From: Botryllus schlosseri
Taxonomy: Eukaryota
Direction of reading: 5' to 3'
Length of the DNA stretch: 64,000 bases
Assembly: GCA_051294905.1 (NCBI GenBank)
Contig: CM119371.1
Location: forward strand, 10,542,001 to 10,606,000
The notes under the pieces were generated by a model that was given only the letters and a program-made list of their open reading frames with translations, made no database searches and had not been told where the DNA came from. Below, one piece after another: positions 7,700 through 56,590 of the stretch. Every line of letters begins with the position of its first letter. The stretch's first letter is position 1. Made by a program: the position numbers and the translations under genes.

Positions 7700-8181
7700 C
7701 TATCCCAATCCCCATTGCTCTTGTAGCAACCAAATTAGGCATCAAAGATGCTAGCCGCCTTGTGGCCAATGACATTGCTGTCGCTTTTCCTCTTTCATGC
7801 TAAGGAAACCAATTCACGGACACTAGCTGTGCTATCGGTATTATAACTCCGGTGGTGGAACCGGCTAGAAACATCCCAGCAACTAGGAGTCCGAATATTC
7901 TTAACAAAACTCCCGTTGTAACCTGAAGGGTGGCGAATCCATTCAAGACAGAAACTAGCAAAGTGATTTGTGGAAGGCTGATCCAACCACCGATCAGGCA
8001 GATCACTACAATGTATGGATTGATTCCGTTGACAAATGAGAATGATCCGTAACCGACGACATGCAATAACGTGATCAAACACACTATGGATGGATCTTTT
8101 CCACACGGCGCGGTGTCTTTTCCCCTTCAACAGGAACGTCTTGTAGGTTTCTGAATCACGAGCACTATCTTTAGACTTCAT
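7700..8181 (-). pseudogene. FLVCR/SLC49-like MFS transporter, N-terminal fragment, pseudogene (copy 1)
   Basis: ATG at 8181 gives MKSKDSARDSETYKTFLLKGKRHRAVWKR, then a frameshift near 8090, then hydrophobic helices ending ...PIAQLVSVNWFP*HERGKATAMSLA, which resembles the SLC49 'WF...ER.TATAI' motif. In-frame TAG at 7800-7802; truncated near 7700 by a foldback-arm fragment. Confidence 0.7.
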
Positions 8182-11100
8182 AGCAAACACTAGACCTGAT
8201 GTCTCTCACTCGGTTCAGTTTCAAAGAATTTTACGCAATGTCCAATCAATGCAGCAAACGAAATGTCCTATACCAAGTTACGCCAACGATTACTTGAGCA
8301 ATGGGCACGAGTAGGATTATTCGTGCCGAAACGGAAGGAAACAGAGATAACAGACGCTATGAATATTGATTGCTGTGATACTGGCCGATGATAGCATAGC
8401 GATGAGGATCGGTGCCATCTCCGCAGGCGGCCTGGGATCCAGTCATGCCTTCGGAGGTTCCTCTCGACTTTTCGTACCCGGTGTCCGTAGTTCCTACGGC
8501 TACCAAAAAGGGCATGCAAAACGATCCGATACCCGGGAAAATGATCGGATGAAGAAAGAAAAGAGCAAGGAATAATGTATAAAATGACATACTAACACAG
8601 ATCATCATGGAAATGATTGTAACCTCCTGCAGCAGGCCTAGGTGGATGCTTGATTAAGCGACCACAACTTGTTCAAAGCGTAAAGCTCACTGCTATATCC
8701 GCTATGAGTGATTGATTAACCCGAAATAATGACGGCTATGTATTATGAATTGTGGTAAATATTTTTAACAGCTACCAAGGTATTAGTCGGATTAATCTCG
8801 AAGCATTGCTAGTTGTTTTCTTTTATTTTCAACTTAACATATAGCTCATGATCATTATCTTGGTTAATTAAATGACTGAACTGCGGTTTTCAACCTCTCG
8901 GCCACGAGAAATTGAGAAAAAGCTGGTTGCTTTCAACATAAAATAGGAATTCAAGTCGTACTGCCCTATAAATAACATATGGTCTCAAATTTAAATTGGA
9001 AGTTGAAAACAATTTTGAAAACACCCTTTTCCCATTAAAAGTCGTAACTAATGAACATTTGTGGTATTGTAAGACACAGCTCCTAAATGATCTCGGTTTG
9101 CAACTAAAATTTTCAAGTACAACATCAAATATACAACAAAAACTGCAACAGTGAAGAAATGCGAGCCAGGAATTTGGCAAAGAGTTAGTAAATGATACAT
9201 CATCAGTTCATCACATATACCAGGACTCGGGAACCTATGGCTAATTAGCCATATATGGTTTTTTGATGGTAAATATGGCTCTTTGATAAAACTTTCCAAT
9301 TTGCCACATTATTCCCATCTTCTTTATTAAAAATGTTTTTAATAAATTGTCATAACGACTGACATCAATATTCTTGAGGTGGATGAGACGAGTTTTCATG
9401 ACGTCTAAACAGTAATGAATATCCTCAAGGGGGGGTTTAGGAGTTCAGAAACTCAAATCTTGAAATTAATGATGACAATCATTGGCTCTTGATAATTTGG
9501 TACTACTAGGTCAAGTTTTTGTTGCACTAAAATAGCAAGAAAGTTGCATTAAATTTCAACCAAAGTTGCAGTAGAAAGTTGCATTTATGATTTTTGTTGA
9601 ATTATTAGGGTATGAGAAATGCGAAAGGTTCCACTGTACAACCTTGTTCCTGCAGAGCTATCAAATTTGTTTCTTCGTCACCTAACGGTCTTACGAAACC
9701 TTCAAAATTACATTTTGGCCGGCACACAGCAAGAAAATTATGCAATGCGGGAATAATTTCCCTCAGTAACTCCTAGTAATTGATACACGTTAACGTCGGT
9801 TAATCACTTAGTCCACAAAGCTTTAAAACATATTTAATCTACAAGAGACTTTCGCTCTCGAAAGTGATACATAGTTCCTCTTTCTTCGATGTCCACACGC
9901 TGTGCGCTGCAGGATGCAATATCTAATTCGAACCATTTTGTTGAAAATCACCCTAACAGGCGTGATTGCAGTGTTTTAACGGGATTTTGTTGATCTAAAA
10001 GTACGCACAATTCATTTAACGTGAATTCTATTAATAATACCGTACACTTTGTGAGTCATCGTGAAAGCGTAGGCCTACATTATAAAAATCTCACGTATGG
10101 GCGATACGTTTTAGAGAAATACGACATCTTTCAACTCTCTTTTCAGGCTGTAAGTCGATGATGACTGCACGAAAGGCGTTTTTTTTTCGATTAGTGCTGC
10201 TCGATCATCAGCAGTTCGCCATGTTCGCAAACTGACGGCCTGTCAGACACAAAGCATTTTACCAAAACGCAACAAAACAAGGACATTAACGACAATGACC
10301 CGAATGCCGAAAGCGAAAATAATCCCAAAATCTGCGATCGATATTTTCGGAAGGCATTGAGGATAGCGATAATTGCATAAGCACACTAAGCCAGTCTACC
10401 GATGAGATTGGCGATTACTTGCAGGTCGTTCATGGCCGAAATATCTCGACGTGATATCGTTGACGAACGCCAACGGTCCAAAACCAAACACATCCAATAC
10501 AGTCATGAAACACACTAGCGATGAAATGCCCCATCATTTCCACACGACGAGGTGCCTTTTCCTCTCCAACAATAACGTCTTGTCGGTTTCTGAATCACGA
10601 CCAATTCGACTTCACAGCACAAACTCATAGCACACGCTCGACGCGATGTCTGTCACTCGGATCAGTTTCGAAGAATTTTTCGCAATGGCAAATCAATGCA
10701 GGAAACGAAATCTCGTACAAAGCTACACCAACGATGACTTGAGCAATGGGCCAGAGTAGGATAATTCGGGCCGATACCGAAGGAAACGGAGAGAGAGTAT
10801 AGACACAATGGATATTGGATATCGATTGCTGTGAAATTGGCGGACATTGACAGTTCAACATAGGAAGACTGTAACATCGGTCACTAGACCGAGGTGGATG
10901 CTAGATTAAGAGACCACAATATGGTCGTTTCGGCATCCTCCTATCTGTTCATTGCATCGCATTGTATATTGTGTGTATGTGTCTTGGGCAGATGAAAATA
11001 TGATCGGGCTATAATCGATTACTATTATTGATAATGCGACTAATATTAATAAGTGAATGCGTGAGAAGCATAAAACTCACCGCTAACCGCTATGATTGAT

Positions 11101-15610: not shown

Positions 15611-16468
15611 ATGTCCGCTCCACCGAAAGTTATACATGAAGATGCATTCAACAAGGAGGAAACGGTGCAGAATTACATTCAAAGTAGACCACGTGCCTTG
15701 ATGGATATTCCGGTTCGGATTGTCATTGAGCGACTTAAGCAATTAGGGAAAGTAGGTCAACGGCCCGCATGCCTACTTGATGTGGGGTGTGGCAGTGGCA
15801 AATTAACCAGATTGTTGGCGAAAAACTTTGACCATACGATCGGAGTAGACGCAAGTGCTCCTATGATATCGTACGCCATTGCTTTCGATAGCGACAATTC
15901 AGAAATTGAGTTTAAAGTGGCAAATGCGGAAAAACTGCCTATTGAAGATAATTCTGTGGACGTTATTACAGCCATGTTTGTTGTACACCAAGCCGACCTC
16001 GAGAAGTTCATTCCCGAATGCAAACGAGTGCTAAAACCTGGTGGTGTCGCACTATTTTACCGGCACCAGATATCAAAAATAATGTCGGCTGAAGATGACG
16101 CTCTACCCATAATAGAGGGACCGGTAAAAATGATGATTCGACAGCTATTGGAAAAGGCGAGAGAAATGTCGCACCCGACCTTTCACACACATGAGCTCCA
16201 TCGAACGCAATTTGACGCGATCAGCTGGGAAAAGAAAAGCAGAGAGATAAATGAGCTGGAATTTGCGCCTGGTTCCCTATGGACTCTTGGCGCATGGTCT
16301 CGCTTCTATCATACCCTTCTGTTCCATCAAAAATTGCGTGAAAACGGCTTAAATCCACTGGCTGAGCTCGTGGAAGCTGTGAAAAATACCTGGTCGATGC
16401 AGGATAGGGGTTCCAACGACATCAAAATTAGAGTGGTGTACAAGACGGTAATGATTATTTTGGAATAG
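15611..16468 (+). CDS. Class I SAM-dependent methyltransferase (Methyltransf_11-like), intronless, 285 aa
   Basis: Motif I LLDVGCGSG, post-I IGVDAS, AEKLPIEDNSVDVIT (motif II) and ECKRVLKPGG (motif III); intact ORF with a gap-free paralogue at 34121. Confidence 0.93.
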   Translation: MSAPPKVIHEDAFNKEETVQNYIQSRPRALMDIPVRIVIERLKQLGKVGQRPACLLDVGCGSGKLTRLLAKNFDHTIGVDASAPMISYAIAFDSDNSEIEFKVANAEKLPIEDNSVDVITAMFVVHQADLEKFIPECKRVLKPGGVALFYRHQISKIMSAEDDALPIIEGPVKMMIRQLLEKAREMSHPTFHTHELHRTQFDAISWEKKSREINELEFAPGSLWTLGAWSRFYHTLLFHQKLRENGLNPLAELVEAVKNTWSMQDRGSNDIKIRVVYKTVMIILE

Positions 16469-28224: not shown

Positions 28225-28589
28225 CAATTCAACACTGATCTTGCAGCGTACTTTCTTAATGTCTGTTGTAAATAGTGCTTTTTGCCTTCATTCAATCGTG
28301 AATAAAAGTGTAATATGCGTTTGTTTATTGGTGAGACGTCGACTAGACATAACAAGTAGGCTACTACTGAGATGTTGACTACAGGTGGGAAATTTTTGAG
28401 TTTCACTCACTGTCAGTAAGTTTTGGAAAGGTCGAAAACAGCAAGATGAATGCATCTAGTTTATTCGTATCTCAACTACGAGAGCACCTGTGCAATACAC
28501 AGTAACACTGTTACACACATTCTGCAGGTAGATAATAATAATTAAAAGGGGTTGCAATGTTGTACATGGACTTTCGATGACAACATTAA

Positions 28590-29080
28590 AGGGACACTGC
28601 GCTCTAAAAATGATGTGGTCTCAAATTGAAGGTAAAAACGAACAAAAATTTTTGGCCGCAGCCATTTCCTTCAGAACGCCACCGTAATGGAGCTGCAATT
28701 TATTGAAATTTCTACAAGACCAACTGCCGCGGCGGCTTAACCCGTTACATGTCACGATGTCTTCATCGTCGCACTTGCTCGACGCGATAAGGCAGTCACG
28801 CAGAGAACGAAACTTAGACATATTTCCTTCATAACATCGGCTGACAGCTATCTAAAATTCGTTCTCTGCGTGACTGCCTAATCGCGTCGAGCAAGTGCGA
28901 CGGTGAAGATATCGTGCCGTGTAACGGGTTAAGCAGCCGCAGCAGCTGGTCTTGTAGAAATTTCAATAAATTGCAGCTCCCCTTACGGTGGCGTTCTGAA
29001 GGAAATGGCCACCGCCAAAAATTTTTGTTCGTTTTTACCTTCAATTTGAGACCACATCATTTTTAGAGCGCAGTGACCCT
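28590..29080. mobile_element. Palindromic (foldback) MITE, Kolobok-like
   Basis: Inverted arms of about 230 bp with an approximately 32-bp spacer; TTAA on both sides (28586-28589, 29081-29084); termini AGGG...CCCT. Confidence 0.88.
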
Positions 29081-30399
29081 TTAACATAGGCCAGGGGTTC
29101 TCCGCCCTTTCTCGGCCGTGGCCCATTTTCCGGTTTGAAAATGGGCTGTGGCCCACCTCTTATCTTGAAGTCATAATCATGTTAAATGCGTGGTAATCGA
29201 CGGCGCCGATATGCCTGTTTCTGTAAACTATAGTCGCATTTTTCTCTTAATTTACTGATTGTAATTAAATGTAGACCTGTCGGCCCATGAAATCGCGCCA
29301 AGCGCGACGAAAATTTTCAAGTCGAATAACTATCCTCCATTAAACAACCAACGAAATATTCTTAAGCCACTTCGAACTCCCACAATTGGGGGTTTAGGTG
29401 CAGCAGTTACGACCCTGGTAGATCATAGGCTAAAACTCCTGTGTATATTATGATCGTCTGCTGCTCCATTCGCGTCACGAAACACAATGATCAAATGCAC
29501 GCATCCACTGTGTGATTGGAATTTTAGTTCCACTATTGTGAGGAATAATATAATCATTCTGGCTCAGCTTCAAACAATTCATTGGTGAATGGGGTACTAC
29601 AGAGAAGTGGAGAAAGAATTTTTTAAAGTGGTGTAAATTCACGATTTTTTTTAACAGTGAAGCAATGCACGGATTTTGATTTAAACTTGGTATTGATTCG
29701 AAACACATTTGAAACGGCCTATGCTCAATATGTGATTAAATGGAGATTGATTTCCGACAAGCTGTCACGTAATACATGATCGAAACAGTTCAAATACTGC
29801 GTAATGACACTTCTCGTGGAAAAATATCGACGGGCGTGCGATTCACGATCAAAGTAATGTCTCAAGATCCCCTCACGATTTTCAATACATCACAGACTAA
29901 ACAGCATTCTTCAAAACGCGTTATGAAATCAATTGCATTGCCCTCGAAGCTTGTCAACTAACGCCCATCAGCAACGAACGTCAGTAAATTGAGTACAGGC
30001 GGGTAATAAAATTTGAAATGTAGAAAGAATTATGTCGTTATAATGACAACTACACAAAATCGCGAATGGCCGATAACAACGTACAGTTACGGCATAACAG
30101 ACACAAATTCAGCTATAAAATAGTCGAGTAACAAAACATCAGAACATTATACCCTGGAATATTTCAATACTGTTCTGTTGGGTATTTTTGTTAGGGTATT
30201 TTATACCTGCGATTTGTGGCTGTTATACCGTAAGTGATTCGTGATTCTGTGTAGTTATTAACATAACGTCACAACGACAATATTATTTCCATATTTCGAA
30301 TTTGGCTTACCGCGTTTACTGACATTGGCTGCTGATGCTGCATGTTGCAGTCATGGGTTGTAATGTCAGTAAACGTGGTTAACCAAATTCGAAACGCGA

Positions 30400-32382: not shown

Positions 32383-32493
32383 GGACAGCCACGGATACCA
32401 GTTTTCTAGTCGTTGGTCTGACCCAGCCGGGGATCGTACCCGTGAACTCCCGATCAAAAGTCGGACGCATCACCATTACGCTACCTTGCTCGG
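32383..32493 (-). mobile_element. Truncated tRNA-derived SINE (same family as 56401)
   Basis: Reverse complement CCGAGCAAGGTAGCGTAATGG...GATCCCCGGCTGGGTCAGACCAACGAC...TGGTATCC matches 56401-56510; abuts a (GA)n tract at about 32336-32368. Confidence 0.75.
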
Positions 32494-34120: not shown

Positions 34121-34978
34121 ATGTCAGCTCGTTCCAAATTTAACTTAGCAAATGACTTCGATACGGAAGATACGGTGAACAAATTCATTCAGACGAGACC
34201 TTCTGGATTGATAGATATACAAGCTCGAGTCATCATTGATCAGCTGAAACAACTGAGAAAAACGGACCACAAGTCGGGCTGCCTACTAGATGTAGGGTGT
34301 GGCAACGGAGAAATAACCAGATTGTTGGCGAAAAATTTCCATCATACGATTGGAGTGGATCCCAGTTTTCCTATGATATCAAAAGCCATTGGCCCCGACA
34401 CGAAGTGTCCGGAAATTGAATTCAAAGTGACCCAGGCGGAGGAATTGCCCATAGAAGACAATTCTGTTGATGTTATTACCGGTATATCTATGCTAAACTA
34501 CGTTGACCTGCAGGCGTTCATTCCAGAATGCAAACGAGTGCTGAAATCAGGTGGAGTCGCACTGTTTTATCGCGATCAGATATCGAAAATGCTCTCTGCC
34601 GAAGACGACAGTCTTCCAGTAATCGACGCCCCGGTCAAGCTGATGATAAAACGCCTATTGGAAAACGCAAGGGAAATGTCGCATTCCAGCTATCACACGC
34701 ATGACCTTCATCAGATTCAATTTGACGGGATCAACTGGATTAATAAAAGCAGAATTGTAAATGAAATTGAGTTTGCGCACCCGTCGCTATCGACGCTCGG
34801 ATCTTGGTATCGTTTCTATTCTCATCTACCGTTCTACGAGAAGGTGGCCGAAAGCGGCGTTAATCCAGCCGCCGAACTTGTGCAATCCGTGAAAGAGAAT
34901 TGGTCGATGCAGGATAGGGATCCTGACGACATCAAAATTAAAGCAGTCTACAAAACTGTAATGATTCTGTTGCAATAA
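34121..34978 (+). CDS. Class I SAM-dependent methyltransferase paralogue 2, intronless, 285 aa
   Basis: LLDVGCGNG, IGVDPS, AEELPIEDNSVDVIT, ECKRVLKSGG; colinear with 15611-16468 without gaps, about 62% identical by manual count (177/285). Confidence 0.93.
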   Translation: MSARSKFNLANDFDTEDTVNKFIQTRPSGLIDIQARVIIDQLKQLRKTDHKSGCLLDVGCGNGEITRLLAKNFHHTIGVDPSFPMISKAIGPDTKCPEIEFKVTQAEELPIEDNSVDVITGISMLNYVDLQAFIPECKRVLKSGGVALFYRDQISKMLSAEDDSLPVIDAPVKLMIKRLLENAREMSHSSYHTHDLHQIQFDGINWINKSRIVNEIEFAHPSLSTLGSWYRFYSHLPFYEKVAESGVNPAAELVQSVKENWSMQDRDPDDIKIKAVYKTVMILLQ

Positions 34979-36556: not shown

Positions 36557-38388
36557 CAGGGCCGTAACAGCACTTCGTCAGCCCCCCCCCAAAACTTTGG
36601 TCTTGGGCCCCCCATATGGTTATAGACCGAACTTCTGGGGGGCTTCGCCCCCCAGACCCCCCCCTCCGGCGATACACTGTTTACCACTATTCATCATCAT
36701 CATTGGGAGTTTGTTTAGTGATTAAGCTTTTGTGGCCTAAGCGCGCGAAGCGCGGAAAATTTCTAGAATTCATGATTTCATCGGTCAGTATGATCGGGAA
36801 TTGCGTATTTAGTATAAATTTTTATCTTCTCTCTGCTGACGTAATCAGATTTGTCGGTAGAGCTGAGTGAGGTGTGTTTGAAAAGGTAGGACCACTCAAT
36901 AATAATTAAACATCTTCGGGCGTATACCCGTTGGCAGGAACGAAACAGCACCTCGTCAGGCCCTCATCACGTTGTTCGCGTTTGTCACTAAATTATCTGT
37001 ACTGTAATGTGAGCCGAGCCAGCGCGAAGCGCGAAAATTTTCGATAATTTATGATAAAATCGGTCAATCAGATCGGCGATTGCATATATATTATGCTATC
37101 AATTTATTGTCCTCCCTACTCACGTAATTAGATTTAACGGTAGAGCTGAGTGAAGTGTCTTGAAAACGGGAGGGCCCGTAAATATTGATTAAACATCTTC
37201 GGGCGGGCGGACCCGTTGATATGACTTCGTTACATGATGTTATTTCGTTACTTCCATAAAATGTTTTCCAGCGGGATGGTATTTGTCTTGTGAGGTTCAG
37301 ATTGCAAAGACAGGAACATCCGGCGCCAGTCATTCAGGCGCCTATGGACAATAGGGCTCTTCAAAAATGACTTTTTTTCTCAAATCGTATTGGCTACTTG
37401 ATAAAATTGTTAGGTTACCTAATTTAAGCCTACACACAAAATTTGATTCAATTCCAGCCAGTAACCGCTTTGCTACAGGTGAAGAAAGTTTCTATTTATT
37501 ATATAAAAATAAATAATAAAAAATTTGAAATTTTTCTGTTCACCCCATGAAACTGTTAGGCTGTCTATAGAAACTATGCTCACCAAATTTGGTTCAATTC
37601 CAACCAGTGGAAGCGGAGTTATTGCCGTCGAAAAATTTGGATTCGAATAAAATAGTATTTACGGTGAGCGATTCTTTGTTTATTTATTATAGTTCTGCTC
37701 ACCGTAAATACTATTTTATTCAAATCCAAATTTTTCGACGGCAATAACTCCGCTTCCACTGGTTGGAATTGAACCAAATTTAGTGAGCATAGTTTCTATA
37801 GACAGCCTAACACTTGCATGGGGTGAACAGAAAAATTTCAAATTTTTTATTATTTATTTTTATATAATAAATAAAAACTTTCTTCTCCTGTAGCAAAGCG
37901 GTTACTGGCTGGAATTGAACCAAATTTTGTGTGTAGGCTTAAATTAGGTAACCTAACAATTTTATCAAGTAGCCAGTACGATTTGAGAAAAAATGTAATT
38001 TTTGAAGAGCCCTAATGGACAATTAAACCAATCTGTATTTTATATAGCCTATATAACGAAGTTTTCTGTCTGCATAAGGGCATAGACCTTTTCGGCCAAG
38101 CTTTTCTCGCTGCCGATCGTTCTGGCACACTTCTTGGAGTCGCATGTTATATGGCCTAAAACTTGATTGTATGTCTTGGTGGGTCGTGGCGCGTTAATGG
38201 CCCAATACCCAATAATATAGCAAAACGGCTACTTGAATTCGCGCGCAGCGCGAAAAATTTTGAAAAAATTACATAAATTTTCAAAAAATACTCTATGATT
38301 TATGCTAATTCACGAAATAATTTTGGGCCCCTTTCGAGCTCGGGCCCCCCCCAATTGGGGGGTTTGGGGTGCGGCAGTTACGGTGCTG
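36557..38388. mobile_element. Composite hAT element hosting a foldback insertion
   Basis: CAGGGCCGTAAC...GTTACGGTGCTG with perfect TSD CTCATGCA (36549-36556, 38389-38396). Related inverted segments at about 43315-43700 and 61715-62620. Confidence 0.85.
37352..38014. mobile_element. Long-TIR foldback hAT MITE
   Basis: Inverted arms of about 318 bp (37352-37669 and 37697-38014) with a 27-bp spacer, TAGGG termini and perfect TSD ATGGACAA. Related single arms at about 7475-7610 and 57440-57730. Confidence 0.93.
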
Positions 38389-44988: not shown

Positions 44989-46045
44989 CAGACTTGGACA
45001 ACTAGATAATTCTAGTTGTCTAATTTCACTAAATTAGAGCGAAATGCCAGTAATCTAATTCTAATCGAATTTGTGAATTGTTCTTATGCTCCAATTGTAA
45101 TTCTAATCTAATTTGTGAATTGTTCTTATGCTCTAATTCTAATTCTAATCTAATTTGTGGATTGTTCTTATGCTCTAATTCTAATTCTAATCTAATTTGT
45201 TAAATGTTCTTATGCTCTAGTTCTAATTCTAATCTAACTTGTGAATTGTTCTTATGCTCTAGTTCTAATTCTAATCTAATTTGTGAATTGTTCTTATGCT
45301 CTAATTCTAATTCTAATCTAATTTGTGGATTGTTCTTATGCTCTAGTTCTAATTCTAATCTAATTCGTGAATTGTTCTTATGCTCTAGTTCTAATTCTAA
45401 TCTAATTTGTGAAATGTTCTTATGCTCTAATTCTAATTCTAATCTAATTATTCGTTATCCTTCAAGTGCCTGTTTGACCTAGGTATTTTGCAGCGAGTTA
45501 ACAAGAATATTTCTCATGCACAGTAAAATAAAGTGCCAAGCCGCCATCGCATTACTTACACCGCTCAGAATTAGCAGTTATTGTGGGACGCATAATAACC
45601 ATGCTATCATATAGTAGCTTGTTTGTTGGCTTTATTGAACAATTGTGACGCTTATCGCCTAATCATGTTGTTTGCGCCATGATAATGAATGATGTAATAT
45701 GCATTGATCATTATTCGCGTTCTTCCAAATTCACAGATCAGATCGCTGGCAGCAAAATATGACCTCGCGGGTCGCGTGTTGATGACCCCTGGTATTGTGC
45801 AAAACGAGCAAAGCTTGGTATACAGACGTTAATCATTCTCATGGTTACGAGACTCCATTGTGATTTGATAGTAACTGAAATTTTTGCTGTATTTATTTCT
45901 AATTCACAATTTCATTCAATTTCCAAGTTTTTCCGAATTCAGTAATTCTGATTCTAATCGTAATCTAATTTGAAAAAAGCTGTAGCTGTAGCTCTAATTC
46001 TAATCTAATTCGAAAAAGCTCAATTTTTTTAGTTGTCCAAGTCTG
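44989..46045. mobile_element. hAT-type MITE containing a minisatellite
   Basis: Perfect 16-bp TIR CAGACTTGGACAACTA; perfect TSD GTTGAAGC (44981-44988, 46046-46053). Confidence 0.9.
45051..45448. repeat. 42-bp tandem array, about 9.5 units
   Basis: TGTTCTTATG recurs at 45079, 45121, 45163, 45205, 45247, 45289, 45331, 45373 and 45415; unit TGTTCTTATGCTCTARTTCTAATTCTAATCTAATTTGTGAAT. Confidence 0.95.
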
Positions 46046-46207
46046 GTTGAAGCAATCTGATTTCAGGCAATTCAATTACTAAAGCATGGTGAATGATACA
46101 ATTCACGGTACCGTTCATTCTTTATTCCAATGTGCAAGTATCGACTTGGTTGATGTTGATTTTTGGCTATATTGCTAAATCACGAATCATATATATAGGC
46201 CTATATG

Positions 46208-47582
46208 CAGGCCGTGTTATTTTTGGCATTTCAGGAGCCAGATGCCAAAACTGCCAAAAATAAAAATTTGAAAATGCCAAAAATAAACAATTTTTGGCAT
46301 ATGCCAAAAATAAAACGGCCTGCCAAATAGTGTATTTCGTTCATGGTGTTGTGTTAACAGGACCGCGTTACAAGCGAGAAGAGCGTTTGTGAAAGGCAGG
46401 TTTCTTAATCTGGGTCCAGCCCACCCATTAGGGGTGAAAGCATGGTGTCATAAATGGTGTGGGCATAGCGAGATTGAACGGCTGACTGCATTTGGTTTAC
46501 CTCATACTTTCCATTTGTCCAAAGGCTATTTTACGACCATTTTTGACCGGCTTGTCTAGCGCTAAATTTGATAAAACGGGTATCAATGAGAAGCTGCCGC
46601 ATTAATGATTATTAAAATATAAATTATATTCTGCTCATGGAACTGAAACCCCCAAAATCAACCACGATTTTTGCATTGTGATCGAGTTGAACATTGTGAC
46701 GCAACAAACTGTCTGGCTATTTCTGAGCTGAATAGTCTCGTTTTGCCAGACAGTCTTGTTGCGTCAATGTTCTTAAACCAGCTAACCTTCCCAGGACTCT
46801 TCCATGCGAGTTTGTAATATTAAAGCCACCTGAAGTGAATATATCAGTAGACTGAAGGAGAAATGATATTCGGGCTACTAAATAGAATGTGTTGAGAGAC
46901 AACACAGGAAACTCCTGGAAAAGGATCGGGAAGACAATTAATTCCGCGACGAGATCGATGGCACTGGCGAAGTGATCTCATTTCATGATGCATGGAAGCC
47001 GGTTCGGCCCTCCAAAGATTTTGAAGCTCTGAAAACCTTTTGTGGGTGACTGGCAACATTCTTTCCCTAAACGGCTACTGCTGAAACCGACATTTCCCAG
47101 ATTCTCTGGGCGAGAAATGAATTTAGGAGAAACTTAGCTGACCTGAGTTTGGAAGCACTGTTACAGTGCAAACGATTTAAGTCTATTCAACAGTTGTAAC
47201 AATCAGCTGTTGAGCGCGTTTGTTAGGCTTTTCTTTCTTTTTTTTTTCGCTTATTGGCACCGATTCCGATGAATCTGCACTTTTTATGGTCTGAATCTGC
47301 ACTTACTGCACATTTTGTGGTTTTGTTTGATATTATTAACCTATGAAATCGTTAGGTTTTTTCTTCTTCCTATTGTATGTTGGCACTGATTATAAGTGGA
47401 TGCTGCACATTTTGTGGTGTCTTTTGACAAACTAGCCCAAATAAAGCGTTTTTGTGACTAATTCGAGGCTGAAACTATCTATTTAGAGGACGATGCCAAA
47501 ACTGCCAAAACTAAAAATCGAAAAATGCCGAAAATAAGTTATTTTTGGCGGTTTTGGCATATGCCAAAAATAACACGGCCTG
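46208..47582 (+). mobile_element. hAT-type element with a transposase C-terminal remnant and an internal duplicate right end
   Basis: Perfect 22-bp TIR CAGGCCGTGTTATTTTTGGCAT; perfect TSD CCTATATG; 46241-46322 duplicates 47492-47582. Confidence 0.9.
46784..47199 (+). pseudogene. hAT-like transposase C-terminal fragment
   Basis: LPRTLPCEFV...IECVERQHRKLLEK...ISFHDAWKPVRPSKDFEALKTFCG*LATFFP*TATAETDISQILWARNEFRRNLADLSLEALLQCKRF; resembles the hAT dimerisation region (T..xE..FS...R..L....LE.LL). Confidence 0.7.
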
Positions 47583-47609
47583 CCTATATGCGATTTGTTA
47601 TCGCTAAGA

Positions 47610-48999
47610 TAGGGTTGCCATACGTCCGGAATTTCCCGGACATGTCCGGAATTTCACTGAAAAATCTGCGTCCGGGAGGAATTTCTAAAATATGCCTAAA
47701 TGTCCGGAATTTTGAAGGCTTGAAGCAGGCTCAAAAGTTTTTCGTAAATCAACATAAACAATATTATTTTCAAGCACATATATGCTATTCAAAATTGTTC
47801 TTCGCGCCCCGCGCGAGTTCTTGCGACGTATTATGATATTAGTATATGCACCAGGCACCACCCTAGCCAAAAATGTAATCAAAATAAATATAAATAACCA
47901 TCACTTACTGAAATAAGTCTGATTGTAATCGCAATTTTAAGCTAACGGTCTATTCCTAGAGTTGGTTAAGACCGATTGGATGCTTCAATCACAGACAGTG
48001 GTTCCAAATCTTGAGGTCGTTCGCCTTTATCTGGTGATTGCGATGATGTTGGACGTAATTAGTTTCCTAGGCCGTGAGTAAGTTTGGGCAAGCTGAATTT
48101 TTTTATTAATCATGCAGCTGATCAAGATTTGAGCTTTGCGACGGAACATTTTGTAGTCGACAAACGCCATGAATACCCCACACAAACAAAACAAACAATA
48201 CATAGTAACGAAGTGACCACTGATCATTCTTGAGAATAGCATAAAAGCCTATTATTCAAGTAGTAATTGGGAAGACTTTTATTTATTCAAAGCGAATTCT
48301 GAAGCTAAATATATTGAAATACTTGGTGGTGTCTTACAAATCTGCGCTTTCGATTTGATTTAAACGAGTGTTGAAAATCTGTCTCCACAAACAGAGGTGG
48401 TGGCAAATGTAATAATAACGCGTAACGCTTGCGACGACAGATTTGGGTACGATCGCAACAAATAGGGCATCAAAATTGAAAAACTAATTTATTTCATTGA
48501 ACATATAACGCCAGGCCTGGACATTTCCATCAAGCAGCTCATATTGAAACTATTATGGAAAACAGTTATGGTTATCACAGTAGAAAATGGATTTTTATAA
48601 ACATTACGAAGTCACCGTGATTGTTGAATCCAACTTTTTAATTTTACACAATCCCTAACAAATCACCTCTATACAGCAAAATATTTGTATCAGTAGGATA
48701 TTGACAATTTAGCAACTAAATTGAGTCAGCACAGTAGGATATGTCATCTCAGACGGCCATTCTGTTCATGTGAGTTCTACTAGTAATGAAGCGAAACAGC
48801 CTCGTGATTTTCCTAATTAAAAATAAAAATGAGGTTATCAACTATTTTGTAAATTTAGAGGCTTCGCGGACCCCCGGTTGAGAACCCTTTGTGTATGTGA
48901 CGTCATATTGACGGACAATGTGTCAACCCTCATTTTAAAAGCCGCTAGTGGGCGCTAAAGAGTGTCCGGAATTTGATTCACAAAAATATGGTAACCCTA
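47610..48999 (+). mobile_element. Non-autonomous hAT element, sister of 26317-27439
   Basis: Same TIRs; perfect TSD CGCTAAGA; the first roughly 520 bp and last roughly 110 bp are highly similar to the 26317 copy. Confidence 0.92.
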
Positions 49000-49225
49000 C
49001 GCTAAGAAAAGTAGGATATCTTAGAAACGAAGACTAATATATACAATGAATAACAATACACGATAAGAATGTGCTGTTAACAATGACAGGAAGTATTGTG
49101 CCTAATGCAGGATAATATTTCTCCGCAATAATATATCTTGTATGTTCCACTCAATAATTATATTCCCAAGGTGGCGCTCGCGGATCAATTGCGCATCGTG
49201 GTTAATTTTTATCAGACATATTAAG

Positions 49226-49551
49226 TATGGTTACCATACGTCCTCTTTTAAGAGGATTTGTCCTCTATTTGACTTTTTTGAAAGCGTCCTCGGAGGACTC
49301 CCCTTGTTTTCTCTTTTGAGAATTTTGGTCGAATTCGCGGCCAAATTCGACTGATATGCCGTAAATCAGCAGCGAAGTACGCTTCGGCGGGTATTTCGGG
49401 AGCTGAGCCAGTAAGTTGACCTTTTTTCTTAGTCAACCGACCACGAACTGTCAAAGATTTACCATTCTTTCGGGATTTTCCTCCGGTTTTGCAAGTCTGT
49501 AAATTCTGAAAAAGTGTACTCTTTTCAGATTTCCAAAATATCGTAACCCTT
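49226..49551 (-). mobile_element. hAT MITE (23934 family), inverted
   Basis: TATGGTTACCATACGTCCTCTTT...GTAACCCTT; perfect TSD ATATTAAG. Confidence 0.85.
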
Positions 49552-50002
49552 ATATTAAGCGTTTGTGATGAAACGGTTCGTACCGTTGCTCACAGGCAAG
49601 CTAGGACGGAAAAAATCAAATGTCCATAGATAACATTTTAAATCAAATGCAGAATACTGTTGATCATCATTTCTTTTCGCACGTCGCGGTATTCACTGAA
49701 ACTCAATTGTTTATCGTTCTGACGGTAAAAGAAACATCGTTGTAATTTACTCATATATCTATGTATAATCTATATACTTTGACTGCGAAATTCGTCCATA
49801 ACAAACTGTTTGTATTCTTGCGGACTGCAATTATACCAAGCTGAAAAATAGTCATTTGGTACTTTCTATTCATATATAACTTAATAGGTTATACGTCCAT
49901 TATACGAAACTACTAAAGATGTTTTGGAATCAGGAATTTAGAGTTGTACACTGTTTTCCAATACTTCTTTCATAACTGCACCACCGCGAATTTGATTTTT
50001 AG

Positions 50003-50134
50003 ATTTATACAAAACCACTCTAACATGAAGACTATACGCATATGCGAGAACAAGAGCGGTGACATTGCATGCAATTCCAGCCAGATTTTGCACATCGTAA
50101 GAGCAAATTACGGGGGATATGCTGGAACTACGAC
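50003..50134 (+). CDS. RBL/SUEL-lectin membrane receptor, first identifiable coding exon (N-terminal half of the lectin domain)
   Basis: TTTTTAG acceptor; FIQNHSNMKTIRICENKSGDIACNSSQILHIVRANYGGYAGTT (CE...C...ANYG motif); GTACGT donor, phase 2. Confidence 0.85.
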
Positions 50135-50359
50135 GTACGTGCGTGAATTTGTTTCGTTAAATTACTTTTAATAGCATAATCGCTCGTGTAGCCTATAGCT
50201 TTCCACAGTAGGCTATGTACAGGATTCTGTTCATACGCCGCTTCAGTTTGATGTATGGGTATGTAATCTAGATTACTGCAAATACCCGAGATAAATGGTA
50301 AATAAGGCGAGAACCATACAGCTTACCGACTACGCAAATCAGCTGCCTAGCCTACATAA

Positions 50360-51088
50360 AAACGGACGGAGCGTTTTAAATATGATGTGGTCTAAAATTG
50401 AGTTGAATTTCGGAAGACATTTTGGCAGCAGCGATTTTTCTCAGAAGGTCACCATATTCGAATTGCAGCTAAAAGATTCAAACGAAAAGTGCTATTTGAG
50501 TAATCGATCATAGTGATAGGGAGGAAACGTCACCACTTCTTAACCTTATGAGAAATTCCTGCCGCTGATTGCTTGACTGTTGCCATTTCTCGACGCGATC
50601 GAGGCAGAGAAATAGATAGCTGTCATCCGATATTTGATGTGAGTGTGCCCTACGAACCACAACGCTTCAGTTCAAGTGAGTAGGCGCACGGTGCCGGTGG
50701 TCGTCGGACGATGTTACAACGAGGACTATAAGCAGTGGTTGATAACGGTACGGGTATGACGCTTCACAGAATCATGCCTGACTGATCGTTGTCCAATGTC
50801 CATTGTATCGGCTGAGAACTCGTTCTGTCTGAAATTTATTCTCTGGGTCGAGTGCAAAAGTGAAGAAATTGGTGTCATAAATAACGCCAAGGGTTACAAA
50901 GCCATGACGCGTCATCTCGACTTTGCAAAGATTGATTACTGGAATAAACTTTCGGTGGAAATCTTTGAGAGCCGGTTCGGAATTCGTATGCGATGGCTTT
51001 CTGGGCAATGTGACTGCTTCCAAACTCTTTTTCAAACTCTCAATCGCAATTCGAGATCACATCATATTTATAGCACAGAGCCCCTTTA
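50360..51088. mobile_element. Degenerate relative of the 28590 Kolobok-like element (intronic)
   Basis: ATGATGTGGTCTAAAATTGA...CTCGACGCGAT resembles the 28590 arm; right end CACATCATATTTATAGCACAGAGCCCCTTTA. Confidence 0.55.
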
Positions 51089-51204
51089 GGTCATTTTCCT
51101 AATGACGACTGTGATATTGAGATAGTGCGCGGTCTTACATCGGCTGACACTCTTTAACGTGCACATCGTGATTATGCAATATGCATGAATCTATAGATCT
51201 ATCT

Positions 51205-51920
51205 CAGGGCCAGCCAACCCGTGGCCCGCGGGCCACATGTGGCCCGCGAGAAGGTTTTGAGTGGCCCGCGAGGTAATTTCCGAAATTTCTAATATCATCA
51301 AAAATGGATTGCACAGATTGTCAACTTGCAAGGCCAACCAAAATTTTGATTAGTCTGGCCGCAACACTTGAGATGTGATGACTAAAATATCAGTTTCGAC
51401 TCATTGACAGATCCATCAAACATTCACATATTGGTAGCCTATATCTTCGTACACGACAATAAAGCAGAATAATTTGCGATAGATCTATCAAAGGCAAGCT
51501 TAGCGCAATATGTTGTCACTCGATTTCTTGTTTTTAAAATTGTTGCCCTTTTGTGAAAATTGAAGAATACCCAATGTATCAGATTGAGTCTAACTATATT
51601 CGCGACTACGAGACAAAGTGTCGTTCAACATATGCGACCTTGCGTTTGCGCTCGCAGTAAGACCGTCGACTATGAAACCTAGGCACGAAATGGTTGACGC
51701 ATGCTGGTCGCAGCTTTCGATATCGATATGTCCATGCGCCGAATAGCCCAGCCCTCGCAAACTTAGTCCAACGATATACAGCAGGCCCGCAATATAGTCA
51801 AGTGACAATATTATTGACCTATGAACTTCAAAAAATTTTCGCGCCTCGCGCGGATAGTGGCCCGCGCAAAAGTTCGTCAATCGAATGTGGCCCTTTGGCT
51901 GAAAAGGTTGGCCACCCCTG
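51205..51920 (+). mobile_element. Charlie-like hAT MITE (intronic)
   Basis: CAGGGCCAGCCAACC...GGTTGGCCACCCCTG; GGCCCGCG motifs; perfect TSD ATCTATCT. Confidence 0.88.
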
Positions 51921-52101
51921 ATCTATCTGCTGTTTTCATCACAATGGGCAAACATAGACGAAAATTACCATGCTCGACATTAGTTCTGTATTGTGAGATG
52001 CGCAATCATGGTCAACTTGGAATATGCCTTTCACCAATATGGTTAAAGTATTTTGGCTACTGAATTCACGACATGATGCAGATTCCGGATGCTGAATATA
52101 A

Positions 52102-52910
52102 CACGGTTACCATATTTTGGAAATCTGAAAAGTGGACACTTTTTCACAATTTTCAGACTTACAGTACTGGAGTAAATTCCGGCTCCAGAAATGAACACTT
52201 TTGTTGAAATCTCCGTTAGTTGACTAAAAAGGGGACTACTATCCGGCTCAGCTCCCGAAATAACCTCCGCAGCTACTTCAGTGCTGATTTACTGTATCTC
52301 AGTCGAATTTTACCCTATATTTAACCAACATTCTCAAAAATAAAGAGGAGAAATCCTCTCAAAAGAGGACGTATGGTAACTAGGGCTGGGCAAAATCGAG
52401 TACCTGAGTGATTCGATTCTGAATCACGTAATATGCTTCGTGTCGAGTCGAGTAATCGAGTATCACTCATTATGACGCCACAATAGAATGTACCATGCCG
52501 AAGTTTAAATATGTACCTTTTATGCCACCGTAAAGAACATAATGCCTGTTATCCGTCACATTAATGATACTTTGGTATTTTTTCGACCATACCGATTTCA
52601 TTGCACTTCTTGACAATGTTGTGGGATGATCATGACTTCAGAAATGTGTTATTTCCAGTAACGCTCGTAGCTTTGTACTATGACTGGTATGCTGCGACAC
52701 GGCCAATCAAGGTTATCGGGCTTCCTCAGTGAAAAAAATAGTATCAAAACTATAATTCTCGTTGGCAAATTAATTTTCAGTTGCGTGGAGCATATACTTT
52801 CAGTACTCGAAAAAAATCGTCTTTTACTACTCGACTCGAATCATTGAAATTAATACTCGATTCAGATTCGAGTACTCGAATCATTGTGCCCAGCCCTGAT
52901 GGTAACCCTA
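52102..52910 (+). mobile_element. 23934-family MITE with a nested TAGGGCTGGGC MITE (52381-52898)
   Basis: Outer TSD GAATATAA/TAATATAA; the inner element is flanked by perfect ATGGTAAC, which is part of the outer TIR. Confidence 0.88.
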
Positions 52911-53079
52911 TAATATAATGCATTATCAACTGGAAATGTGCATTGTGCTATAGTAAACTAATGATATAATTGCAGAGGTCGTTGGGTTGATACAGTCACA
53001 GACGGTCCAAAATAGTGTCCGGAAACGACGTACAATAACGTCGTGGTGTCGAGTTGAACGAATCTATATTTTCCGCAAG

Positions 53080-53255
53080 GTGTGGCTTTTCGTCGAGAAG
53101 GAACTGCACAGCATCGACATCTTTTGGAAAAGTAAGAGATTCATGTCAGAATCAATCTTCGTGTCGACTCACTGCATCGAATAGCGAGTTTGATTGCGAT
53201 CCCTGCCCCAGAATATATAAATATCTGGAGGTTCAGTACAGCTGCCTTCTAAAAG
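53080..53255 (+). CDS. RBL receptor exon: C-terminal half of the lectin domain
   Basis: TTTTCCGCAAG acceptor with matching phase 2; CGFSSRRNCTASTSFGKVRDSCQNQSSCRLTASNSEFDCDPCPRIYKYLEVQYSCLLK (DPC and KYL motifs); GTAAC donor, phase 1. Confidence 0.9.
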
Positions 53256-53986
53256 GTAACGTTGCATTGTTTATACAATTACTCAAACACAGATCAAAAC
53301 CATATGCATATGAGCCTTGAATTATTACAGTAACCTTACCTTTCTTTCTATTTTTTGTTTGTTTATGTTAGCTATATGCTGTCTTTCGGGGACAATGACC
53401 ATATATACGAGTCCGATATACCTTATTATGATTCCGTATTTGTCGACTTCCAGGTTTAGCGCGACTCACTGTTAGGCTCTTATCAAGACAAGGCTCACGC
53501 CGATCAAATGGCGACAAGACGTCTAGATTAACCTCCAACAGTTTGAGGGAATTCAAGTCGACTTTGGTCGAACTCGAACACGCAACCTATTTGCGTTGCA
53601 GCTGTGGATAGCCTACTACCGCTATGTTATCTCGCCAACCGATAGTTTTGGTGTAAACAGTCATTCGGTTGCTGCCAACCGTGAATATCTTACATGCTAT
53701 TCAGGAACCTATTAAAAAGTCTTACAACGTCTAGGCGAAAACGTATTTCAGCTCATTGGTGGAATGATGGCCGTTCTGTAGTACAATGTATATGCAAGAA
53801 TACAATAGCAAGTAAATATAAATATATTGCTAGGTCTTGGCGGGAACATGTGCCACAAATAATCAGATCAGTTACAGGTGGAATCGCTTAATTGAATATA
53901 GGATTATGATCGTTGAACAACTTCTATCGAGCTTCTGAAACTGCGAGCAATCCATACCCTCTGTATTGTTCTTTCTGGATTATTAG

Positions 53987-54091
53987 AAACAACAAGATCT
54001 GACACCACTACTGAAAACCATATCACAACCTACAGTCATGGGTACGGGAATTCCACCGCTACATCGACCGAAGGAAATATAACTCCAGGAG
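53987..54091 (+). CDS. RBL receptor exon: Thr/Ser-rich stalk
   Basis: TTAG/GTAATT boundaries, 105 bp, phase 1-1; ETTRSDTTTENHITTYSHGYGNSTATSTEGNITPG. Confidence 0.8.
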
Positions 54092-55032
54092 GTAATTAGG
54101 CTTGATTAGATAATTGCCGGCAGAGCATTATATTTTCTAAACCGTCTTCACGTGTCGTTTATCATTGTAACACACAACTGCCGACAAGTGTAACGCCTGC
54201 ACAACGAAGACGTTGCGTAGCCACTCAGTAATCATATTTTACAAGCATCCCAAAATCAAGACCACTTGCCACGGATTGTTGAAAATAGGCACGTGCCGCA
54301 GCGAACGTCCTAAGAGTGTGGCTCTGCAGTCTCCCTGGGAGTGGCATTCTACAAAATATGTTGGTCCATTATTATTATATAAGTATTCCAGGAATGGATA
54401 GTTTGACGCTGTAAATAACTTTGTTGATTAAATTCCCAATGAATATTATGAGACGTGTTCGCATAAGGAAATGATTACAACGCAATTGTACGCCGTTATA
54501 CGCAGCCATGGGTACAAACTACACAAGTATCAGTCAAAATAAAGCATTGGCGAATTCGGTACAGCAAATCGAAAAACCAAGATGCCGCATATTGGTGTTA
54601 TTGAACAGTTTGAAGTTTCAATACAGACTCAAATTCATTCCCTCATAAATAATGCATCACCAGTCTCAAAATTATAAGCACCTTCTTTAGATTCCCCGCC
54701 ACAACAACCACTGCAGCATTAGACTGTGATATATTTCAGATTCAAAAACAACGTAAATTAATTTGGTGTAGTTGGGTTCAAGACATAGAATTACGTCGTT
54801 CAAAACTGTGCATCGAAAGTGCTCACTGCTTTCATTTTGAACAAGAACAGGTGGCCAGCATTCCCGGTATACTACTTATGAGATATCACATTTATGCCTT
54901 CGATGTGATGTTTTATCTCGCTACTCTTTGATTGGATTAATCGTGCTACCGATAGTCATGATGCCAGTTTTGCGAATTAGCCTGAAGTTCTCACTGACTT
55001 CCTCTCGCAAATAACTATAAACTTTATTTCAG

Positions 55033-55129
55033 ATGTCAAATCGTTGGAACCAGGCATTATAGCTGGCATCGTGCTGTGTGCGATGTTCGTTGGCCTGGCA
55101 TTTGCGGTCTTCCTAATTCAGTTGAGAAA
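55033..55129 (+). CDS. RBL receptor exon: transmembrane helix
   Basis: TTTATTTCAG/GTAAGG boundaries, phase 1-2; DVKSLEPGIIAGIVLCAMFVGLAFAVFLIQLRK. Confidence 0.88.
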
Positions 55130-55523
55130 GTAAGGAAACATTCTGTTTTTCATCGATATTCTGCGATGTTTATATCGATCCAATAGTACAACATGTGATT
55201 GTTTAGTATGTAAGCCAAAGATGTCTTCCTATAAACTTGTATCAGTCGATATGTCGTATTGAAATTGACTGACTAACGCGTGAACGTCCGGTGATGATGT
55301 GTTCTATGAACATTCTCAACATTTAGTGTCTTGAAGGATTAGATAATGGAGTTATTTCATACTAGAAAACTAGCATTTGTTAGAAATGTGCTGGATAATA
55401 CAATCATTTTTCAATCGACTCGCAGTTGCTTTGTAGGCCGGACGTAGGCTAATTGGCTGACGGGCCGTATATTACACACCCCTGACATAACTCTAGCCGG
55501 ATATCGTTACTGGCATATTCCAG

Positions 55524-55758
55524 AAATCGCGACGGAAAAAGCAATGAAGAATCTGGTGCGGGAGGCAAAGAAAAAGCTATCTATGTGATGAGCGATACGT
55601 ACCAGGGTGATGCCAGTGACGCTGGCGCAACCGATGCGACATATTATTCAACCATAACCGATGCAAATCAGTTCACATCAGAAAACCCATACGATTTCGC
55701 CGAACACGAAGACAATACAGGAACGATGACGGATAATATTATCTACGCATCTTTTTGA
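55524..55758 (+). CDS. RBL receptor last exon: tyrosine-rich cytoplasmic tail
   Basis: TTCCAG acceptor with matching phase 2; NRDGKSNEESGAGGKEKAIYVMSDTYQGDASDAGATDATYYSTITDANQFTSENPYDFAEHEDNTGTMTDNIIYASF then TGA. Confidence 0.85.
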
Positions 55759-55883
55759 GCTTGCAATTTGATTGGATGTGGACCAGCTATTGATTATGTC
55801 CTGTGGTATTTTCTCTCCTGTATGCAATTGTGAATTTTTCATGACGATGGTTTGCTTAACATCATGACTTGTATGACTTCGAT

Positions 55884-56330
55884 CCAGGAGCGGGCAACAT
55901 ACGGCCCCGACAAGATTTTCATCGGCCCGCAGAGAGGTTCTACCCAGCAAGTGAAATTCTAATGTGAAGGTATTGACAAATTTTATCCCTCACAGAATGA
56001 ATGCAAATTTTCCAACACGTGAAAGATGGTCATTGGTCATGAAACTACTTGTTGTGTTCGGGTGTTTACATATACATTTGCAAGCAAACATTTTCGACCA
56101 TGAACATTAACAAGATAATGCTGCGTTTCAATCTAACTGCCGTTCACGTGCAGTCTTTGCCAAGGGTTTCCATATCCGACAAAAAACCAAAGAACTTGTT
56201 GACAACTTTGATCGACTAGAGATATCTGATTGACTTCAACAGCCATTGAAGTACATTAGCTTGATCAATTTAATAAATACTGTTCTGGGCTATATTGTGC
56301 TTTACATATTTACAGTTAACATTATATACG
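55884..56330 (+). mobile_element. Charlie-like hAT remnant with a transposase dimerisation-domain fragment
   Basis: CAGGAGCGGGCAACATACGGCCC start; KFYPSQNECKF...MKLLVVFG...YICKQTFSTMNINKIMLRFNLTAVHVQSL. Confidence 0.65.
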
Positions 56331-56400
56331 ATTTTTACCTTGTATAGGCAGATAAATACTCGATTCATGTAACGATTCTGTCATAGGTGCCGACTTTTAT

Positions 56401-56590
56401 CCGATCAAGATAGCGTAATGGTTAAGCGTCCGGCTTCTTGATCGGTAGGTCGTGGGTTCGATTCCCGGCCGGGTCAGACCAAAGACCTGAGTAGTAACTC
56501 TGGTATCCATGACTTCCCTGCTTGGCGCTCATGCATTACTGGGATAGCATGGAGGGGTGGTGCATGACTTAGAAAGTCGTAACGGCTATA
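56401..56590 (+). mobile_element. tRNA-derived SINE, possibly with a Meta-type central domain
   Basis: A box TAGCGTAATGG, B box GGTTCGATTCC, then GGGTCAGACCAAAGAC...TGGTATCC...CTTCCCTGCTTGGCGCTCA; second copy at 32383-32493. Confidence 0.78.

Follow-up and report, generated by a model that had tools for sequence, protein, structure and literature searches.

The stretch of Botryllus schlosseri DNA examined here (assembly GCA_051294905.1, contig CM119371.1, positions 10,542,001 to 10,606,000 of the forward strand; 64,000 nt, hereafter the window) would hold the five 3' exons of a genuine gene, expressed at a low level, whose product is a small type I membrane protein. A first-pass annotation had proposed five GT-AG exons of compatible phase that join into a SUEL/rhamnose-binding lectin (RBL) domain, a stalk, a transmembrane (TM) helix and a tyrosine-rich tail. 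The exon coordinates, splice dinucleotides and reading frame all hold: AG precedes all five exons, GT follows exons 1-4, the exon phases run 2 (at the opening of exon 1), then 2, 1, 1, 2, and joining the exons gives 247 codons in one open frame, closed by one stop at its end (11 and 12 stops interrupt the remaining frames). The sequence also supports the proposed architecture, with a SUEL profile match, a TM exon and a 79-residue tail bearing six Tyr. The features discussed below are as follows (window positions).

50003..50134, plus strand: exon 1, the first identified (internal, opening in phase 2), encoding the SUEL/RBL domain's N-terminal half; AG/GT flanks, open frame, SUEL profile E=5e-5
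50043-50048, plus strand: Cys-Glu in exon 1
50103-50117, plus strand: position of the YGR motif, reading ANYGG, in exon 1
53080..53255, plus strand: exon 2, encoding the SUEL/RBL domain's C-terminal half; Pfam PF02140 E=2e-15
53189-53206, plus strand: FDCDPC in exon 2, with an extra Cys before DPC
53216-53227, plus strand: YKYL in exon 2
53987..54091, plus strand: exon 3, putative Ser/Thr-rich stalk, 105 nt; placed by frame and splice signals only
55033..55129, plus strand: exon 4, single uncharged TM helix at ~55056-55118, predicted from hydropathy
55524..55758, plus strand: exon 5, encoding an acidic cytoplasmic tail in which six residues are Tyr, and including the stop codon
55639..55656, plus strand: TYYSTI, a match to the consensus of the ITSM, a tyrosine-based switch motif of immunoreceptors
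55735..55755, plus strand: C-terminal NIIYASF, a pattern match with a terminal YxxPhi
56272..56277, plus strand: AATAAA, candidate polyadenylation signal from sequence only, 514 nt past the stop

Exon structure and the 5' end

Candidate TM exons were sought on both strands with our own splice and hydropathy heuristic, which gave 109 open candidate exons. The only two matches were both exon 4, making it the sole TM-like exon in the window, in agreement with the helix proposed earlier. This helix contains no charged residue, reaches a Kyte-Doolittle mean of 2.78 over 19 residues, starts with GxxxG and is followed by basic residues. Adaptor-type coupling is not expected of an uncharged TM helix, and is therefore not expected here. 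The stalk is 36% Ser plus Thr and contains two N-glycan sequons.

For exons 1, 2 and 4 the structure is far better than chance would give, and for exons 3 and 5 it is reasonable; these last two also lie in non-repeat sequence, where contig-set depth is near zero (neighbouring repeats reach thousands). By inspection, exon 1 has a sole other in-phase donor, at 50156, which was rejected: it would add 7 residues where the SUEL profile has none. Exon 3 is symmetric (phase 1-1) and thus skippable in frame, and the frame of exon 2 stays open for ~21 codons into intron 2 (53256-53320, plus strand), so that intron retention would yield a lectin-only form without the TM helix; the reads gave no evidence for either event. 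That the gene is real and encodes a type I membrane protein is, in our judgement, very probable.

The model is incomplete at its 5' end. Because exon 1 opens in phase 2, either at least one upstream exon exists or translation starts at a Met at 50025; the second option seems unlikely, as a disulfide-rich, N-glycosylated domain would then have no signal peptide. An N-terminal signal peptide would be expected of the full protein. None of the 128 upstream plus-strand open reading frames (ORFs) has a Pfam match. Among the four splice donors the first, at 50135, has the lowest score, 0.85, the other three reaching 3.5-3.8. No second SUEL exon was found in the 64-kb window; with the model open at its 5' end, a second SUEL domain may exist beyond the window, or be too diverged to detect.

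The lectin domain and the cytoplasmic tail

Searched alone, exon 2 matches the Pfam SUEL_Lectin (Gal_Lectin) model PF02140 above its curated cut-off (E=2e-15; 57.3 bits against 31.4), in line with the domain named in the first-pass annotation, and it also matches solved RBL and latrophilin domains. For exon 1, which has no Pfam match by itself, we used a SUEL profile of our own, for which 289 SUEL domains were taken from 120 database proteins; these proteins are the best 120 of 4,960 matches and are mostly tandem lectins of fish, echinoderms and cnidarians, not receptor-attached domains. In a six-frame scan of the window with this profile, the exon-1 frame was the second-best match (E=5e-5; next best E=2.1), and exons 1 and 2 joined form one continuous domain (70 bits, profile positions 3-95 of 95). 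The eight best-matching of the 120 proteins are 41-49% identical to it. Of six loci from a metagenome scan, two were latrophilin-like, three were generic RBL-like, L006 was a chance match, and none was a close relative; with exon 2 alone as query there was 1 candidate, which did not score, and no phage match.

Judged by its sequence, the domain is atypical for the SUEL/RBL family, a point absent from the first-pass annotation. All 8 canonical Cys align with conserved columns, and E15, Y36 and K91 align with the rhamnose-contacting columns (Lat-1 E42, Y63 and K120). The DPC and YKYL of the family motif DPCx(G)T(Y)KY(L) are present, with G replaced by R and T by I within it; the Gly117-equivalent position is Arg, as in 4 of 499 non-gap domains. 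The YGR motif characteristic of the family is replaced by ANYGG. A ninth Cys is inserted before DPC, and the resulting CDPC occurs in 1 of the 289 domains, a set picked by patterns containing CE, DPC and KY, whose columns are thus conserved by construction. Loop 1 is short by ~6 residues, and five N-glycan sequons lie in or just N-terminal to the domain.

In latrophilin-1, Glu42, Tyr63 and Lys120 contact the sugar, as does the Gly117 backbone, and the two loops are stabilised by the buried residues Arg65 and Lys120 (PMC2430599, in the portion available); YGR and other RBL motifs have natural variants, according to the accessible part of PMC3269628. Given the lost YGR Arg, the extra Cys, the short loop 1 and the Gly-to-Arg change in the binding loop, sugar binding by the domain appears possible but uncertain, and we rate the chance that the protein binds rhamnose or galactose as slightly below even. 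The Arg loss, the inserted Cys and the altered Gly weaken the earlier description of the protein as glycan-sensing.

The tail comprises 79 residues. Six of these are Tyr (P=0.03 if a Tyr frequency of 3% is assumed), and every one of the six has an acidic residue among the five positions upstream of it. TYYSTI, ENPYDF and NIIYASF are all present as had been described, and TYYSTI fits the ITSM consensus TxYxx(I/V). In 20,000 shuffles of the tail, TxYxx[VI] arose in 4.3% and the extended consensus of ITSM and ITIM (the tyrosine-based inhibitory motif of immunoreceptors) in 9.0%. The available text of PMC11460946 places 41 of 51 known inhibitory receptors under 5% shuffle odds and 10 between 5 and 25%; the value of 9.0% passes the 25% filter of that study and is not strong.

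The readings of NIIYASF in the first-pass annotation did not survive. As an ITIM-like motif it has the form IxYxxF, and its final Phe departs from the ITIM consensus (V/L/I/S)xYxx(I/L/V) given in PMC11460946; as an NxxY motif of the phosphotyrosine-binding (PTB) type it is common by chance, NxxY occurring in 38% of shuffles, and NPxY is absent. Neither the hemITAM (the hemi form of the tyrosine-based activation motif of immunoreceptors) nor the paired [A/D]VYxxV core-2 motif occurs in the tail. What is left of the proposed inhibitory role is one ITSM, in a tail whose consensus match 9% of shuffles reproduce and which lacks a canonical ITIM. Six weak matches to the tail among 1.84 billion representatives, all in 5-10 stretches, were discarded; the one inspected was a simple repeat protein.

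The favoured reading, its alternatives and the transcripts

The explanation that we consider best, with a probability of about 0.5, is a type I receptor that signals via its ITSM tail. Whether the tail tyrosines carry a signal is on our estimate an even question, and a specifically inhibitory signal is doubtful. Several observations weigh against this explanation. Scans for a signal-peptide exon from 30-35 kb up to 50 kb gave 12 loose candidates, none convincing, and 0 under stricter rules. At the YGR Arg position, 481 of 487 non-gap domains (504 rows, 17 gaps) have Arg and 0 have the Gly of this domain, and this change could mean a poorly folding or decaying domain. Strict and broad patterns for a canonical ITIM match nothing in the tail, only two of its six Tyr lie in YxxPhi, and at least one YxxPhi arises in 56% of shuffles. 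The search for tail homologues returned 37 candidates, none scoring, and no usable Atlas match. Finally, none of the four exon junctions is among the 15 read joints listed (threshold at least 3 reads or a contig; 151 further joints unlisted), at a depth of ~1x or less that is too shallow for junctions.

The alternative that survives best, though unlikely, is an EVA-1-like co-receptor or adhesion protein, in which the SUEL domain would capture a ligand, protein or heparan-type, for presentation to another receptor, and the tail Tyr would be incidental or scaffolding. EVA-1 of C. elegans and human C21orf63 (EVA1C) are likewise single-pass, with extracellular RBL/SUEL domains and a short tail (available portions of PMC2430599 and PMC4133157). 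EVA-1 binds MADD-4 via its lectin-like domains and requires its short tail for function (PMC4133157), and RBL domains attached to receptors have often lost sugar binding, the argument being that they often bind proteins or other non-carbohydrate ligands (PMC2430599); the loops of the present domain are altered too. A role for an ITSM in EVA-1 does not appear in the accessible parts of these two papers. As described there, EVA-1 has two RBL domains that lack key sugar-binding residues; the gene here has a single SUEL domain in the window, not the tandem pair of EVA-1/EVA1C, and, unlike EVA-1, retains Glu and Lys, which sugar binding requires, along with the Tyr. Scanned separately, exons 4 and 5 give no Pfam match at E<=1 to the EVA1/FAM176-type membrane and tail region. 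That region is a feature of the EVA1 family.

The first-pass annotation had held that membrane forms of RBL have other architectures. This was overstated, since EVA-1/C21orf63 is single-pass and 6 of the 120 SUEL database proteins have a C-terminal TM helix and tail (uncharacterised P0022, amphioxus P0068, P0074, P0083, P0085, and P0079). These six are 584-1801 aa long and carry several SUEL domains with one C-terminal TM helix, most have other domains, and an ITIM or ITSM is present in 0 of the 6 tails. They come from 29 of the 120 proteins flagged as hydrophobic after the DPC motif; the other 23, in which further lectin domains follow the hydrophobic stretch, were dropped. No protein with one RBL domain and an ITIM/ITSM tail is among the best 120 of the 4,960 database matches. 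Nor was one found in the literature covered (including the accessible parts of PMC9316650 and PMC8878817, and lying mostly outside subscription journals and supplements), which is weak evidence of absence. A single-pass RBL protein is a known kind, and the pairing of a single RBL domain with an ITSM tail is the apparently new part.

Less likely still is an endocytic or sorting lectin receptor, in which YSTI and the terminal YASF would serve, unphosphorylated, as YxxPhi adaptor signals that internalise bound ligand. YxxPhi is an adaptor-protein sorting signal. The tail has two such motifs, one of them at the extreme C-terminus (0.9% of shuffles, for a pattern chosen post hoc), the terminal YASF could equally be a sorting signal, and the lack of a canonical ITIM is in keeping with this role. 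Yet both motifs lie >40 residues from the membrane, NPxY is missing, and the four other Tyr in acidic context would go unexplained.

Transcript evidence comes from reads of 4 of 24 runs aligned over 45500-56500, with ~6% and 13% of two raw RNA runs sampled. In raw run X8, a depth of ~0.9 over the bins holding exons 3-5 corresponds to a handful of reads; exon 3 has 2-3 reads' worth of this depth, at least one read apparently starting within an intron. Exon 1 has, by bin arithmetic, no RNA read, the nearby signal being one intronic read. Raw run X12 has zero depth in the bins holding exons 1, 3, 4 and 5, and in both X8 and X12 a repeat dominates the bin that holds exon 2. Contigs from runs X1 and X5 cover portions of exon 5; in one X5 contig, exon 4 continues into intron 4 without splicing. 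The X5 contig over 55522-55712, which spans the ITSM, differs at 17 of 191 letters, leaving 91% identity (another contig differs at 1 of 174); this divergence points to a second allele or a paralogue of the tail exon.

About as improbable as the endocytic reading is that the gene is a duplicate from a local family, in decay or hardly used, or that its lectin exons are not truly spliced to the TM and tail exons: the several rare substitutions within one domain, the weak first donor, the 5' exon that was not found and the very few reads, several of them intronic, speak for it, but no stop or frameshift interrupts the 247 codons, the splice dinucleotides and the 8 core Cys are all intact, and an in-phase TM exon is unlikely to arise by chance where the whole window has 1 such exon.

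The window as a whole is intron- and repeat-rich. Two paralogous, intronless ORFs of 285 aa each for class I S-adenosylmethionine (SAM) methyltransferases lie at 15611-16468 and 34121-34978 on the plus strand; their DNA is 74% identical over 701 bases, both match Pfam Methyltransf_11 (E=2e-25 and 6e-22), and their exact sequences have no match in the protein collection. Just downstream of the lectin gene, a tRNA-like short repeat at 56401-56498 (plus strand; related copy at 32409-32493) is probably a short interspersed element (SINE). RNA run X8 covers it ~700-fold on each strand; this depth, together with an adapter-like loose end before 56401, suggests an abundant small transcript family starting there. 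Neither ARAGORN nor Rfam calls this repeat; Rfam has no match between 48 and 58 kb, and ARAGORN finds no tRNA gene. Two long near-perfect palindromes, at 28586-29084 and 37349-38017 (90% and 95% self-complementary), are likely fold-back transposons, and a tandem array at 45051-45449 has a unit of ~42 bp with ~94% identity between copies. On the minus strand, the GC-rich segment 1200-2700 looks like a retroelement gag-type sequence: a Cys/His peptide near 1207-1296 resembles a zinc knuckle, a repetitive ORF lies at 2133-2654, and the ORFs tried have no Pfam match; two hydrophobic ORF fragments at 7800-8653, also minus and with no Pfam match, may belong to a multi-pass membrane protein as exons.

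A candidate lectin receptor and its possible role

Starting from the observed frame, domain, helix and motifs, we infer each later step of a signalling receptor. The gene, its exons presumably spliced as modelled, would belong to a lineage-specific family. One diverged SUEL/RBL domain would sit above the membrane on a glycosylated Ser/Thr stalk, and the protein would dimerise via its ninth ectodomain Cys and the GxxxG helix; SUEL is described as a disulfide-linked homodimer in the accessible part of PMC3269628. The ligand may be a glycan of the rhamnose or galactose type; in view of the altered loops it may also be a protein or a different glycan. Its clustering would let a Src-type kinase phosphorylate the tail, whereupon Tyr211 of the ITSM, perhaps with the terminal Tyr244, would recruit an SH2 protein such as a SHP-type phosphatase. 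This recruitment would tune cell activation, with a sign and in a cell type that the model can only propose; inhibitory glycan sensing is plausible.

Such a receptor would share features with several known systems. Secreted RBLs (SUEL, CSL3 and the ascidian BsRBL) have the same PF02140 domain and are described as ascidian opsonins in the available text of PMC5465252; the protein here is predicted to be membrane-anchored with a tail, and has YGG, the extra Cys and the short loop 1. Latrophilins (ADGRL) and PKD1-like proteins also carry receptor-attached RBL domains but are multi-pass and multi-domain, whereas this gene has no seven-transmembrane (7TM) or other such domain. The Siglec/CD33 family, CLEC12A/B and PD-1 follow the same logic of a recognition ectodomain over a tyrosine-motif tail; the present gene shares the ITSM consensus and differs in its unrelated ectodomain and lack of a canonical ITIM. 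The fester co-receptors (FcoR) of the ascidian Botryllus are type I proteins encoded in multigene clusters, with ITIM, hemITAM and core YxxI/L/V motifs and, in a preprint, one ITSM (accessible parts of PMC12582321 and PMC11507803). As described there, FcoR belong to the immunoglobulin superfamily, which sets apart this RBL gene, with no hemITAM and no paired [A/D]VYxxV.

At present, the case consists of one partial gene model and one motif of modest statistical weight. That it represents an undescribed, rapidly diversifying, germline-encoded family of immune or self-recognition receptors, with a single SUEL/RBL domain, re-engineered ligand loops and an ITSM-type tail, is rather unlikely. Known RBL domains act as opsonins when secreted, or bind proteins as modules of guidance and adhesion receptors; with an RBL domain over its own phosphotyrosine tail, an invertebrate cell could read a glycan or self ligand and directly change its activation. 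This would be a new ectodomain class among the convergent ITIM/ITSM receptors and, if true, a further independent route, next to those of the Siglecs and C-type lectins, to a lectin receptor of inhibitory or switch type. The available text of PMC5465252 gives the sialic acid receptor behind the 'do not eat me' signal of ascidian phagocytes as unknown, which makes a concrete candidate family testable. If the reading is true, the family may possibly supply this missing 'do not eat me' glycan sensor.

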